64,000 bases of DNA from a phage: sequence record PZ445488.1. One strand, given 5' to 3'. Shown one piece after another: positions 19,459 through 48,816 of the stretch. The position numbers and the translations under genes were made by a program. Under the pieces are notes generated by a model. That model ran no database searches and had not been told where the DNA came from. It worked only from the letters and a program-made list of their open reading frames with translations. Every line of letters begins with the position of its first letter. Within the stretch, counting starts at the first letter, position 1.

Positions 19459-19929
19459 TTAATCATGTTTCCACACCCCATCGGTATTTGACCAAAGTCG
19501 CTGATTATCTGATCCTCGCCACAGCTTTTTGGTCGGAAGATTTTTCTCATACTTCCCATCAATAATAACATCAACATATTTAAGCATTTCTAGCTGTTTA
19601 ATATCTTCAAACTTATATCCTGTCCACAACCAAATGCTTTTATTGGGATAAAGATTTTTTACTGTTTGAACAATGTAATGAATAACATCTCGGTTATCAG
19701 GATAGAGAGGGTCTCCTCCGGTTATAGTTAATCCTTCTATATAATCATTATTCAAACATTCAATTAATTGTTCTAGTGTTTCACCAGTGAATGGAATACC
19801 ATTTCTAGCGTTCCATGTTGATTTATTATAACACCCTTCGCATTTATGCAAACAACCTGTAACGAAAAGAACGACCCTACAACCAGGGCCATTCACAAAA
19901 TCGCAAGGATAAAATCTATCATAATTCAT
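19459..19929 (-). CDS. nrdG: anaerobic ribonucleotide reductase activating protein NrdG (radical SAM)
   Basis: 156 aa; Cys-rich N-terminus (CDFVNGPGCR, CLHKCEGC); same length as T4 NrdG. Confidence 0.9.
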   Translation of the reverse strand: MNYDRFYPCDFVNGPGCRVVLFVTGCLHKCEGCYNKSTWNARNGIPFTGETLEQLIECLNNDYIEGLTITGGDPLYPDNRDVIHYIVQTVKNLYPNKSIWLWTGYKFEDIKQLEMLKYVDVIIDGKYEKNLPTKKLWRGSDNQRLWSNTDGVWKHD

Positions 19930-21743
19930 TGGTGTTTAACCCTATGCATGATTTCTTTATTTTTACCGAGATTAAATCCGCGTTCGTTCGGATTTCCAAG
20001 ATAACCGCATGTTCTTCTTATGGTGTTCATCTTTTTAGGATCAGTTTCTCCACAAACTGAACAAACAAATCCGTTTTCAGTAGGAGTCATTTCATGGGTA
20101 CTTCCACACGTAAAACATTTATCTACTGGCATATTAACACCAAAATAATCTAAATGTTGTGCAGCATAATCCCACACAGCCTCAAGACCTTTTAGGTTAT
20201 TTTTCATATCAGGAAGTTCAACATAAGAAATGTGACCACCTGTCGCAATGAAATGATATGGCGCTTCACGAGAAATCTTTTCAAACGGAGTAATATTTTC
20301 TTCTACTGAAACATGGAAACTATTAGTGTACCAGCCTTTATCAGTGACATCCTTTACACTTCCATATTTTTCTGTATCAAGTTTACAGAAACGATAACAC
20401 AAGTTTTCAGCAGGAGTAGAATATAAACTAAAAGCAAATCCAGTTCTTTCAGTCCACTGTTTAAGATGAGCATTCATTTTAGTTAAAATTTCTTGTCCAA
20501 TATCACGACCAACAAGAATATTCAATTCATGAATACCAATATATCCTAAAGACACTGAACTTCTACCGTTTTTAAATAACTCAATTATATCATCGTCGGG
20601 TTTAAGACGAACACCAAATGCACCTTCTTGGTAAAGAATAGGAGCAACAGTAGCTTTAACTCCTTTTAAGGAACTAATTCTACACATCAAGGCTTCAAAG
20701 CACAGATCCATTCGTTCATTAAATAACTCAACAAATTTCTGTTCATTGAACTGTGTTCCAATATAAGAATCTAACGCGATGCGAGGAAGATTCAGTGTTA
20801 CAACACCGAGATTATTACGTCCATCAAGAATTTCATTACCAGTCGAATCTTTCCATACACTCAAGAAACTACGGCAGCCCATTGGAGAAACAGGAATAGA
20901 TGAGCCGGTGATAGCTTTATTATTCTTAACAGAAATAATGTCAGGATACATTCTTTTGCTTGCACACTCTAGAGCGAGTTGCTTAATATCATAGTTCGGA
21001 TCGTCTTTATAAAGATTAACACCCTCTTCGACAAACATAACAAGTTTAGGGAAAATAGGAGTTATTCCATCACGACCAAGACCTTTAATCCGATTTTTCA
21101 GAATTGCTTTCTGAATCATTCGTTCGGTCCAATCAGTTCCAGTACCAAATGTAATTGTTACAAAAGGCGTTTGCCCGTTTGAACTAAAAAGAGTATTTAC
21201 CTCATACTCATAAGCTTGAAATGCGTCATATACATCTTTTTCTGTTTTAGATTGAGCATAATTCAGAATGTCTGGTATTTGCCATTTTTCTGCATCTTCA
21301 ACATGTTTAGCGTATGTACGTTTAACATAAGGAGAAAGAACTTTATCGACATTCGCAAATGTAGTTCCGCCGTACTGATGTGAAGCAACTTGTGCAGTAA
21401 TTTGTGCCATAATTGCAGTAGCAACACCAATCGATTTAGGCGTTTCAATTTGAGCATTGCCCAATTTAAATCCGTTCTCAAGCATCCCCTTTAAATCGAC
21501 TAAACAGCAATTGGTAAACGGAAGAGCAGGAGAATAATCAATATCATGCATGTGGATAATTCCACTTTCATGCGCATTCATAATAAAAGACGGGACCATA
21601 TTTTTGGCAATGTGCTTAGACACAATACCAGCCATAAGGTCCCGTTGAGTTGGAAAAACACGAGAATCTTTATTAGCATTCTCGTTCAAAAGATCTTTAT
21701 TAGTTTTATAAATTAATCCTTCAATTTCTTTTTCAATTTTCAT
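19926..21743 (-). CDS. nrdD: anaerobic ribonucleoside-triphosphate reductase NrdD
   Basis: 605 aa; C-terminal Cys cluster (CFTCGSTHE...CSVCG) and glycyl-radical motif RTCGYLG. Confidence 0.95.
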   Translation of the reverse strand: MKIEKEIEGLIYKTNKDLLNENANKDSRVFPTQRDLMAGIVSKHIAKNMVPSFIMNAHESGIIHMHDIDYSPALPFTNCCLVDLKGMLENGFKLGNAQIETPKSIGVATAIMAQITAQVASHQYGGTTFANVDKVLSPYVKRTYAKHVEDAEKWQIPDILNYAQSKTEKDVYDAFQAYEYEVNTLFSSNGQTPFVTITFGTGTDWTERMIQKAILKNRIKGLGRDGITPIFPKLVMFVEEGVNLYKDDPNYDIKQLALECASKRMYPDIISVKNNKAITGSSIPVSPMGCRSFLSVWKDSTGNEILDGRNNLGVVTLNLPRIALDSYIGTQFNEQKFVELFNERMDLCFEALMCRISSLKGVKATVAPILYQEGAFGVRLKPDDDIIELFKNGRSSVSLGYIGIHELNILVGRDIGQEILTKMNAHLKQWTERTGFAFSLYSTPAENLCYRFCKLDTEKYGSVKDVTDKGWYTNSFHVSVEENITPFEKISREAPYHFIATGGHISYVELPDMKNNLKGLEAVWDYAAQHLDYFGVNMPVDKCFTCGSTHEMTPTENGFVCSVCGETDPKKMNTIRRTCGYLGNPNERGFNLGKNKEIMHRVKHQ

Positions 21744-29389: not shown

Positions 29390-29656
29390 TTACTTATCAC
29401 ACTTAGCAACATAATTAGGCATATCACAGAATACAGAGCGAGTAACTACTCGTCCCTTTGACCATGCTTCAGTTGCTTGTCCGGCCGTGCTATTAATATA
29501 GCTTGATTTAATGTTCTCAATACCCTGAGAATGTGATGCATTTACCGAACCGTTAGAAGGCGCAGGAGCCGGTGGTAACCAGTCTCCTGCGCCCGTGGTA
29601 GCACCAACAGAGAATGCCATCATTACTGCGAATAAACCAATTACTAATTTTTTCAT
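29390..29656 (-). CDS. small secreted/periplasmic protein (88 aa, signal peptide)
   Basis: MKKLVIGLFAVMMAFSVGATT... signal-peptide-like N-terminus; ATG at 29656; a late promoter motif lies 28 nt upstream. Confidence 0.55.
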   Translation of the reverse strand: MKKLVIGLFAVMMAFSVGATTGAGDWLPPAPAPSNGSVNASHSQGIENIKSSYINSTAGQATEAWSKGRVVTRSVFCDMPNYVAKCDK

Positions 29657-36328: not shown

Positions 36329-36594
36329 TAGTATTTTTCCTCAGGTCGAAATACTGCACGACACGCCCACATGCTGGCTTCTTTTAGATGTTGCTTAGCA
36401 TACTTAAGAGCCTGTACTGCATCCATATCTTCTTTGGTTTGTTGCTCTGTTTCATTTTCTTTCAAGATATAGGCTTCTTCAATCAGAGCATCAAACAACA
36501 ATCCAAGACGGACTTCTGCATCTTTAATAGCGTTCACTTTACCGATTTTATCATCGGTATGCGGCTTGTAGCCTTTGATGTCTTCAATCGACAT
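36328..36594 (-). CDS. hypothetical protein (88 aa)
   Basis: ORF track frame started at ATG 36594 (GAGGA 9 nt upstream) to resolve the overlap with the 36584..36808 ORF. Confidence 0.45.
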   Translation of the reverse strand: MSIEDIKGYKPHTDDKIGKVNAIKDAEVRLGLLFDALIEEAYILKENETEQQTKEDMDAVQALKYAKQHLKEASMWACRAVFRPEEKY

Positions 36595-36808
36595 AAGGAA
36601 TTTCCTCATCGGTGGCAAGGTCATATTCGACCAATTGGATAGGCTCATTAATACCATATCCACGTACAATGATATCAGTTGTCGGATAGTTTCCAGTAAT
36701 ATCACCCATTCTAAATGCTTCAGTGAATGATTGCTCGCCAGAGCAACTAAACCAGGCGGCAAAACATTTTAAAACATCTTCAGACCCTTCTATAATCAAT
36801 TTAGCCAT
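36584..36808 (-). CDS. hypothetical protein (74 aa)
   Basis: ORF track; start abuts the GrcA-like stop. Confidence 0.45.
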   Translation of the reverse strand: MAKLIIEGSEDVLKCFAAWFSCSGEQSFTEAFRMGDITGNYPTTDIIVRGYGINEPIQLVEYDLATDEEIPYVD

Positions 36809-37170
36809 TATAGGCTCTCAGTAAAGGTACGAGCGATAACGTCGCGCTGCTGTTCCGGAGTCAGAGAGTTAAAGCGAACTGCATAACCGGATACACGGAT
36901 GGTCAGCTGAGGATATTTTTCCGGATGCTTAACTGCATCTTCCAGAGTTTCGCGACGCAGAACGTTAACGTTCAGGTGTTGACCACCTTCAATTTTAACT
37001 TTAGGTTGATGTTCAATTTCAATTTCACGGGCATTCAAACCGTAGAAAATTTCCGGGTCTACAATAGCGTCTTCTTTAAAAGTCTTAGAGACAATAATCC
37101 GGGCTTGAGTACCGTCTTCAAAATAAATAGTGCCTTTGTGTGTGCCTTCAAGAATTTGATATGCTTTCAT
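36808..37170 (-). CDS. grcA: autonomous glycyl-radical cofactor (GrcA/YfiD-like; T4 Y06I-type)
   Basis: 120 aa; glycyl-radical motif RVSGYAVRF; the C-terminal about 60 aa ([59 protein letters not shown]) match E. coli GrcA as I remember it. Confidence 0.85.
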
Positions 37171-38021: not shown

Positions 38022-38193
38022 TTAGTTTCTCTTAAGGTTGGGGCCATTCCGTGGCACATGTTAGGTCCTTCGACTCGCTATGTAAACCCATTACCGCATT
38101 GCGCTCGACCTTATTACAGGTTGGAAAAGGTACATCACTTAGAGGACTCGACGTTCATAAGGAGAGGTTGCGTTTCCCTTTATTAGACAAGAA

Positions 38194-38523
38194 TTATACT
38201 CTAGGCTTTTGAGCTTGTTTGGTATTGGATTCCCATGCGGCTTTGGTAATTTTGTTAGCGGCATAGCCAAAGGCATTAGATAGAACACCTTTAGAGTTGA
38301 ATACATCCAATCCAATAAGTACACCTGCTGTGTTAAATTTAGGAGCAAAGTATGCATTAGTTTTAGAAAGAGCTTTTTTCAATTCAGGGTCTTGAACCAA
38401 GCCATCAAAAACGCCTTTACTATTTACTTTATATGTTACTTTGGGATTTTTACCTTCTTCGATAGCAGCTTTCTGTTCAGCAGATAATGTAACTTCAGTG
38501 ATAAATTCTTGATACATTTTCAT
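38194..38523 (-). CDS. internal-protein-like capsid-targeted protein (ipII/ipIII class)
   Basis: N-terminus MKMYQEFITE matches the T4 internal-protein capsid-targeting leader MKTYQEFIAE; adjacent to denV as in T4. Confidence 0.55.
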   Translation of the reverse strand: MKMYQEFITEVTLSAEQKAAIEEGKNPKVTYKVNSKGVFDGLVQDPELKKALSKTNAYFAPKFNTAGVLIGLDVFNSKGVLSNAFGYAANKITKAAWESNTKQAQKPRV

Positions 38524-38529
38524 TTTTCC

Positions 38530-38943
38530 TTAGTAAATTGATTTACCATAGTATTTGTACCAAGTCAGTCGTTGAGCAATTTTTTCATCTAAGCGTGCTT
38601 GACTTATCGCAATGGACGCTTCGGAAGGGACATAATTATTACGAAATTCGGCAGGGATGTCGGAAATATCCTGGACTGTCGTGTCCTTGATTTTGAAACC
38701 ACGTTTCAAGCATTCAGCGATTAGCTCGATTTGTCGTAAACGTAAAAATTCAAGTTTGTCGTAAAAGAATGTTACGTGACCTGTGCCTAAGATAAATGTT
38801 GGAGAGATTTTAAAATCCTTTACACGTTTACCGTTTTGAACATGTTTACGGACTGCACCAAATACGCGTGGTAATTCACGATACTCAGCCATAAGATGTT
38901 GGTCGGTCAGTTCAGAAACAAGTGTTAAATTGATACGGGTCAT
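38530..38943 (-). CDS. denV: endonuclease V (pyrimidine-dimer DNA glycosylase) DenV
   Basis: [35 protein letters not shown]... matches T4 DenV (138 aa) from ATG 38943; the track start 38955 is TTG. Confidence 0.9.
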
Positions 38944-48661: not shown

Positions 48662-48738
<77 letters not shown>

Positions 48739-48741
48739 AAT

Positions 48742-48816
48742 TGGTGACCCTGGCTGGTTTCGATCCAGCTACCTATCAGTTATGAGCTGACAGCTCTCCC
48801 ATTGAGCTACAGGGCC
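48742..48816 (-). tRNA. tRNA with anticodon CAU (Met, or Ile after lysidine modification)
   Basis: Hand-folded: acceptor GGCCCTG/CAGGGTC, D-arm GCTC-AATGGGA-GAGC, anticodon loop CTCATAA, T-arm GCTGG-ATCGAAA-CCAGC, encoded CCA; 3 nt from tRNA-Arg. Confidence 0.75.

Follow-up and report, generated by a model that had tools for sequence, protein, structure and literature searches.

How does a virulent T-even phage come to carry a gene whose second half matches the chromosome of its host almost letter for letter, while the first half differs? The question is raised by an open reading frame (ORF) of 120 aa at 36808–37170, minus strand, in the phage sequence record PZ445488.1, of which a stretch of 64,000 nucleotides (nt), hereafter the window, was analyzed. 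A sequence-only reading of this stretch had noted that about 60 C-terminal residues of the predicted protein, including RVSGYAVRF, appear identical to Escherichia coli GrcA and that the N-terminal half differs, a pattern that would fit gene conversion or recent recombination with the host grcA gene. It had also likened the product to the spare glycyl-radical domain of T4 (Y06I), which can repair pyruvate formate-lyase (PFL) damaged by oxygen. The present analysis bears these proposals out and makes it probable that, in this ortholog of the T4 spare-part gene vs.6, the tract encoding the radical domain has been converted from host to phage, and more than once.

Judged by sequence and gene order, the ORF is the ortholog of T4 vs.6 (Y06I), the phage autonomous glycyl-radical cofactor. 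Both proteins are 120 aa long and share 94% aa identity, and the order regB - vs.5 - vs.6 - vs.7 - vs.8 - denV is common to the window and T4. RefSeq labels T4 vs.6 "autonomous glycyl radical cofactor GrcA", and with this annotation we take it to be the protein called Y06I. The Gly_radical domain of Pfam (PF01228) was detected at residues 59–101 with 67.3 bits (cut-off 22.2), and the RVSGYAVRF motif with Gly95 is identical to that of E. coli GrcA. The Gly95 codon of RVSGYAV, located at 36886–36888 (minus strand), is the predicted glycyl-radical site of this family member, as aligned with E. coli GrcA and the PFL motif. Among solved structures the best match is E. coli GrcA itself (6OWR, GrcA residues 27–127, E = 2e-42), followed by PFL, of which residues 696–759 match residues 57–120 of the window protein (E = 3e-26); this stand-alone 120-aa protein matches only that part of PFL, leaving the catalytic barrel uncovered. 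E. coli GrcA (YfiD) shares with the window protein the radical motif and a small, autonomous architecture, but the N-terminal region of the latter is seven residues shorter, about 30% identical and AT-rich. The alignment with the NCBIfam GrcA equivalog TIGR04365 spans residues 18–120, and the whole gene is therefore a grcA homolog, including its 5′ half. In E. coli, grcA lies between ung and eamB, whereas the phage gene is located in an early-gene cluster and overlaps the next ORF. Over 15 kb, the window phage shares 97–98% identity with Mosigvirus-like phages (APCEc01 and ATK47, for instance).

The gene falls into three parts, all on the minus strand. A phage-type 5′ half (gene nt 1–178, residues 1–59, at 36993–37170) is a diverged homolog of the GrcA N-terminal region. 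It is followed by the putatively host-derived tract (nt 179–353, residues 60–118, at 36818–36992), which comprises the entire part homologous to the PFL glycyl-radical domain, and by a 3′ tail beyond the conserved tract (nt 354–363 including the stop codon, at 36808–36817). At the protein level, residues 61–120 are 100% identical to residues 68–127 of E. coli K-12 GrcA, and the first 60 have only about 17 in common with it. Protein identity was nevertheless rejected as evidence of recent transfer, because dozens of Enterobacterales genera, and even Pasteurellaceae, have GrcA proteins with the same or almost the same C-terminal 60 aa; the evidence therefore lies in identity at synonymous sites.

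Aligned with K-12 grcA, nt 1–178 carry 96 differences (46% identity) and nt 179–363 only three in 185 nt, two of them within the last 10 nt. The tract proper is identical at 174 of 175 positions, the sole mismatch being a G to T change at nt 261 (CCG to CCT, window position 36910). Divergence is not spread evenly along the gene but changes sharply after nt 178, where a breakpoint with a maximal chi-square of 125 was attained by none of 2000 permutations and the host-identical segment begins. Composition splits at the same point: G+C content rises from 0.36 to 0.49 across the breakpoint (the corresponding part of E. coli grcA has 0.49, the phage 37%), and at third codon positions (GC3) it rises from 0.27 to 0.43. 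With respect to G+C the tract ranks in the top 0.08% of 185-nt segments across the 64 kb. It is also the sole megablast match of window positions 20001–45000 to 5,426 complete E. coli genomes, no other host-like stretch being found in that interval. The 5′ half is 90% identical to T4, 73% to Klebsiella Jiaodavirus and 74% to the Enterobacter phage CC31. A triplet test restricted to the sites at which CC31 and E. coli differ assigned the window to CC31 and to E. coli at 62 and 10 sites, respectively, of the 5′ half and at 1 and 32 of the tract (Fisher p = 5e-17); triplet tests overall gave p = 1e-10 to 1e-17. Synonymous identity, a sharp breakpoint, host-like composition and phylogenetic incongruence thus coincide, and on these comparisons the sequence is a host-to-phage gene conversion mosaic.

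Concerning the donor, the 185-nt 3′ segment was compared with 80 bacterial grcA genes from genome representatives. E. coli K-12 shares 182 positions, another Escherichia species 179, Citrobacter amalonaticus 167, Salmonella 152 and the rest fewer; this comparison identifies Escherichia specifically as the donor. A neighbour-joining tree of the tract interleaves Tequatrovirus, Mosigvirus and Carettavirus phages with E. coli alleles, with a bootstrap of 97.5% for the clade of phages plus Escherichia and 0% for a phage-only clade. Two sequences, phage phiE142 and the IMG/VR locus L091, match the allele of E. coli strain 2015C-3108 at 175/175 positions. As for the direction, the bacterial grcA genes of E. 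coli and K. pneumoniae agree at 169/199 and 154/175 positions in the two halves, and in the bacterial tract tree the Escherichia sequences stand together and most Klebsiella-type sequences lie near one another. The two halves of the bacterial gene diverge alike and the composition of the tract is bacterial; the direction of transfer is therefore from host to phage. Two tract polymorphisms that distinguish the sampled allele classes of E. coli, nt 192 A/G and nt 219 C/T, also segregate among the phages; when a synthetic query with 15 phage variants was used, E. coli shared only 192G and 219T. At nt 219 the window has the K-12-type C and phiE142, identical to it over all 178 nt of the 5′ half, has T. 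These shared polymorphisms suggest separate conversions from different E. coli alleles, an outcome to which single mutations could also lead.

The mosaic is shared by phage lineages that are old relative to its tract. T4 vs.6 occupies the same genomic position and shows the same structure, with an E. coli-like tract from nt 179. The 5′ halves of T4 (a Tequatrovirus) and the Mosigvirus-like window differ at 10% of nucleotides, while the tract differences between them are private changes only, as in codon 73, which is CAT (His73) in T4 and CGC (Arg) in the window. The T4 tract differs from K-12 at 2/175 positions. When the E. coli tract was searched against 50,697 phage records, 643 records (phages of Escherichia, Shigella, Yersinia and similar hosts) were at least 95% identical to it, 292 of them at 99% or more and 351 at 95–99%. 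T4 and about 640 T4-type phages carry the mosaic, which is therefore not particular to the window phage. The age of the tract was approached through the codons that differ between the window and T4 despite a conserved amino acid. Such differences affect 35–51% of conserved-residue codons in the flanking vs, vs.1, regB, vs.5, vs.8 and denV, 21% in vs.6 codons 1–59, only 2% (1/57) in codons 60–117 and 3/3 in the last three codons. Sliding-window identity between the two phages likewise is 65–85% in the flanks and 97–98% in the tract. With 2% in the tract vs. 35–51% in the flanks, the tract must be much younger than the split of the phage lineages, and this pattern rules out one capture in the common ancestor with no more than ordinary divergence afterwards. 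The word "recent" in the sequence-only reading accordingly holds in the sense of recent relative to phage divergence, and several events are indicated rather than one.

Within the 5′ half of vs.6 (36993–37170) the synonymous divergence from T4 (21%) is itself about half that of the neighbouring genes (35–51%). The whole gene may have moved between T-even lineages later than its neighbours, or its codons may be constrained.

The pattern recurs with a second host. The Klebsiella T4-like phages of the genus Jiaodavirus encode the LLDAVEH variant found in GrcA of Klebsiella, Enterobacter and Salmonella, as opposed to LEDAVKH, the E. coli type. Over nt 181–338, a stretch of 158 nt, the Klebsiella phage KPV15 (locus L113) departs from K. 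pneumoniae grcA at one position only, and beyond this stretch it is phage-type (triplet test, p = 1e-15). In the phage records, 106 sequences are 95–99% identical to the K. pneumoniae tract, and those listed are all T4-type phages of about 165 kb, nearly all of them Klebsiella phages; these K. pneumoniae-type phages are only 86–88% identical to the E. coli tract. The Jiaodaviruses Roth21 (L083:1501–1863) and PKO111 (L175:1501–1863) share 95–98% identity in the flanks, 96.6% in the 5′ half and 10/10 positions in the tail, vs. 88.6% in the tract. KPV15 contributes a third tract allele to these near-identical backbones, and three alleles in such backbones mean that the tract has been replaced several times. 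Since the tract is younger than the lineages that carry it and the Klebsiella relatives bear K. pneumoniae-type tracts, or others of the Klebsiella/Enterobacter type, at this position, more than one conversion, following the host, is called for. From these sequence comparisons conversion is repeated across lineages and hosts; within the E. coli group alone the evidence for repetition is weaker.

Two observations belong beside this comparison. The KPV15 copy of vs.6 (L113:301–662), despite its freshly K. pneumoniae-like tract, is out of frame owing to a 1-nt deletion near gene nt 123, and is a pseudogene unless the deletion is a sequencing error. The Roth21 and PKO111 tracts are GC-rich and 11% apart, and species of the K. 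oxytoca group or Raoultella are candidates for their donors.

Not all relatives have been converted. T5-like phages (Tequintavirus) and members of Karamvirus, Slopekvirus and Pseudotevenvirus are lytic enterobacterial phages that encode small proteins ending in the same glycyl-radical domain, but their tracts are 75–84% identical to any sampled bacterial grcA and mostly AT-richer. Specifically, the Karamvirus CC31 has the phage-type 5′ half and an AT-rich tract (G+C 0.41) that is 81% identical to E. coli or any sampled bacterium, the tract of the separate GrcA-like gene of T5-like phages is about 75% identical to bacterial genes and the Slopekvirus and Pseudotevenvirus copies are about 83% identical to bacterial grcA. 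These four groups show no recent conversion and therefore serve as internal controls. In the T5-like Escherichia phage BB1 (L086:1320–1688), the independent GrcA-like protein has 122 aa, is encoded beside a tRNA cluster and is annotated as "acetyltransferase-related".

The junctions are also informative. The last phage-type bases before the tract are nt 175–178, which read AAAA vs. CGCG in E. coli, and in KPV15 nt 180 is still phage-type. Judging from these alignments, two independent events have their 5′ junction where the conserved GAAGGNGGTCA block begins and an alignment between phage and bacterium first becomes possible. At the 3′ end the switch occurs around nt 353 in phages of the E. 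coli group and around nt 338 in KPV15, and homology with the E. coli grcA locus does not continue past the stop codon. Four of the last 10 positions of vs.6 are polymorphic among otherwise E. coli-like phages and occur in many combinations, which suggests repeated change. An interpretation of the tail as a series of conversion endpoints was rejected, as the combinations of the four sites fit no single switch point. Bases of the tail also form part of the ribosome-binding region of the downstream vs.5-like gene and of the TAATG that joins the vs.6 stop to its start. Apart from T4, every E. coli-type copy sampled has G for A at nt 354, a change that makes a GAGAG purine run a few bases before the vs.5-like start; this run could be the ribosome-binding site of that gene.

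A probable course of events can be read from this structure. An old, AT-rich grcA of the phage lineage is represented by the 5′ half, which is common to T4, the Klebsiella Jiaodaviruses and CC31. Its 175-nt radical-domain tract has probably been overwritten by the E. coli chromosomal grcA through homologous recombination (gene conversion), the length of the tract being bounded by the shared homology and its terminal bases acting as the anchor. T4-type phages recombine very actively, and markers can be rescued into them from plasmid DNA with modest homology requirements. By analogy with such rescue, fragments of host DNA present during infection may have been the donors. Once in place, a host-like tract would offer a perfect 175-bp target for the next exchange. 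Whether vs.6 is in this way a self-updating cassette, continually overwritten by the grcA of the enterobacterium most recently infected, is a further step for which we see the case as evenly balanced.

Regarding function, PMC8683613 (citing Wagner et al., 2001) states that the PFL activase acts on both E. coli YfiD and T4 Y06I, which, once activated, bind PFL cleaved by O2 and restore its activity; these are the only two biochemically validated spare parts for the cleaved enzyme. The radical domain encoded in the window is identical to that of YfiD, so the same function is the natural inference, and the spare glycyl-radical domain proposed from the sequence agrees both with that paper and with the orthology to T4 vs.6. 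Extrapolating from the characterised T4 and E. coli proteins, we infer that the window protein serves as a spare part for oxygen-damaged PFL. The host activase PflA would install the radical on Gly95, and the small protein would dock on host PFL cleaved by oxygen at Gly734, replacing the lost radical domain. Fermentative production of acetyl-CoA and formate would then continue during microaerobic infection. The window also encodes NrdD (605 aa, with NRDD and Gly_radical domains) at 19926–21743 and, adjacent to it, an NrdG-like activase (156 aa), the pair occupying 19459–21743 (minus strand); the phage thus has a second glycyl-radical protein with an activase of its own, and vs.6 presumably depends on host PflA.

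The strongest competing explanation is that the E. coli tract was acquired by conversion in one T-even phage only and then spread by co-infection to Tequatrovirus, Mosigvirus and Carettavirus, with the host chromosome acting as donor only once per host genus. T-even phages are known to recombine freely among themselves, and the lower divergence of the vs.6 5′ half (21%, vs. 35–51% in the flanks) hints at exchange of the whole gene between phages. Nevertheless, the fall in synonymous divergence from 21 to 2% coincides exactly with the edge of host homology, and a site 9 nt from the junction differs between the phages; the phage tracts do not form a clade apart from the E. coli alleles (0% support for phage monophyly); and two polymorphic sites of E. 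coli segregate among the phages. In Jiaodavirus, moreover, at least three different tracts in nearly identical backbones show that replacement from outside the phage lineage recurs, and we consider a single acquisition followed by spread unlikely. Far less room is left for an ancient capture of the whole grcA without later recombination, in which purifying selection would have kept the radical domain while the N-terminal half drifted. The near invariance of the C-terminal 60 residues as far as Pasteurellaceae would indeed give the observed protein identity under ancient capture. However, essentially all synonymous sites are identical as well (174/175 nt), while bacterial genera with the same protein differ at 8–16% of those nucleotides. 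The G+C content and codon usage of the tract are those of the host, and CC31 and the T5-like phages illustrate what an unconverted tract looks like (75–81% identity, G+C about 0.41–0.45). This scenario is refuted by the synonymous-site data, and we give it practically no credence.

An artefact, either through co-assembly of host reads or through conversion of the tract during laboratory propagation on E. coli, was also considered. E. coli K-12 or B is the propagation host of many sequenced phages, certain tracts match E. coli alleles at 100% and, at nt 219, the window has the K-12-type base where its closest relative phiE142 has T. Yet the tract is in frame inside a 363-nt gene with phage sequence on both sides, the tail and the 5′ half are consistently phage-type, and about 640 independently sequenced genomes, the T4 reference included, carry the tract. 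Most copies bear private substitutions, and Klebsiella phage tracts are 97–98% and not 100% identical to K. pneumoniae grcA; we therefore hold an artefact to be very improbable. A similarly slight chance is attributed to a role of vs.6 as a spare radical domain for the phage anaerobic ribonucleotide reductase NrdD instead of host PFL. Such a role would be in keeping with the NrdD (19926–21743, with its Gly_radical domain) and NrdG encoded in the window, and an early comparative paper had proposed that vs.6 acts in nucleotide metabolism (PMC1524935). On the other side, the tract is of the grcA/PFL type (PFL residues 696–759, E = 3e-26), with no NrdD structure among the matches listed. It copies the host spare part for PFL and not NrdD, and T4 Y06I complements cleaved PFL according to PMC8683613.

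Repeated host-to-phage conversion, which we prefer, has to be set against several observations that speak against it. The apparent 5′ junction is common to all E. coli-type phages, and 219T to most of them, as one conversion in this group followed by phage-to-phage spread would predict. For copies with 100% identity, conversion during laboratory propagation is possible. The vs.6 protein scores 159.1 bits with TIGR04365, below the cut-off of 170 (E. coli GrcA, 234), a shortfall caused by the diverged N-terminal half. Host DNA is broken down early in infection by T4-type phages, so that donor molecules should be in limited supply, and the T5-like and Karamvirus homologs are unconverted although these phages infect the same hosts. 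About 160 bacterial and metagenomic grcA loci, 80 from genomes and 80 from metagenomes, together with misassigned chromosomes in a plasmid collection, yielded no donor for Roth21 or PKO111, the best match being about 90% identical. A Salmonella-like tract at 95% identity or more is present in no phage searched, and phages isolated on Salmonella or Yersinia have E. coli-type tracts; host tracking is therefore not universal, and the isolation host is not simply mirrored. The evidence consists of sequence comparison.

Mismatches between the tract allele and the recorded host were noted, for example, for the Salmonella phages PSE-D1 and pSe_SNUABM_01 (L172) and the Yersinia phages PYps15T and ZN18, and a K. 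pneumoniae-type tract was seen in one "Salmonella" phage. It may be the reservoir host, and not the host of isolation, that the tract reflects.

Several other features of the window were recorded. The downstream vs.5-like ORF (74 aa), at 36584–36808 on the minus strand, has a start that overlaps the vs.6 stop codon; it gave no Pfam match and is 65–73% identical to T4 at the nucleotide level. Between denV and the vs.8 ortholog, about 400 nt at 38136–38536 form an alignment gap with respect to T4, and this insert contains a 109-aa ORF (38194–38523, minus strand) with no Pfam match. The most GC-rich 185-nt segment of the 64 kb (G+C 0.50) starts near 29434, in an 88-aa ORF at 29390–29656 (minus strand) whose N-terminus is signal-peptide-like. 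No nucleotide match to this spot was found in the E. coli genomes, and it is therefore not a second host-derived tract. Only two tRNA genes were detected in the 64 kb, Arg-TCT and Met-CAT, adjacent at 48662–48816 (minus strand); T4 has eight.

The nearest precedent is the psbA gene of cyanophages, for which Zeidner and co-workers in 2005 and Sullivan and co-workers in 2006 reportedly described intragenic recombination between host and phage, with host-like patches and repeated exchange. In both cases a host-derived metabolic gene of a lytic T4-like phage carries patches of host-like sequence or composition. Unlike psbA, vs.6 has a single, sharply bounded patch of 160–175 nt with 99–100% identity, found in the best-studied coliphage lineage; its other half is anciently phage-type, and sister genera carry the alleles of different host species. 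The gene, its biochemical role and intragenic recombination of auxiliary metabolic genes as a type of event were already known, and what is added here is evolutionary. Full-text literature searches found no description of the nucleotide mosaic or of host-specific vs.6 alleles, though an earlier notice is possible.

As a practical consequence, phage reads can map to bacterial grcA, and the tract can be flagged as host contamination in phage assemblies. More generally, vs.6 offers a clean and quantifiable case of a virulent T-even phage with a short tract 99–100% identical to the host chromosome. Should the exchange be ongoing, host chromosomes and T4-type phages recombine in nature even though host DNA is degraded, and the process would be measurable in a simple experiment. 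If vs.6 is indeed a continually overwritten cassette, the tract would be a marker of the recent host species, and possibly of the strain allele, for uncultured T4-like phages and viromes. It would also evolve in concert with the host gene and not with the phage genome, and the spare part would stay matched to the PFL and the activase of the host.

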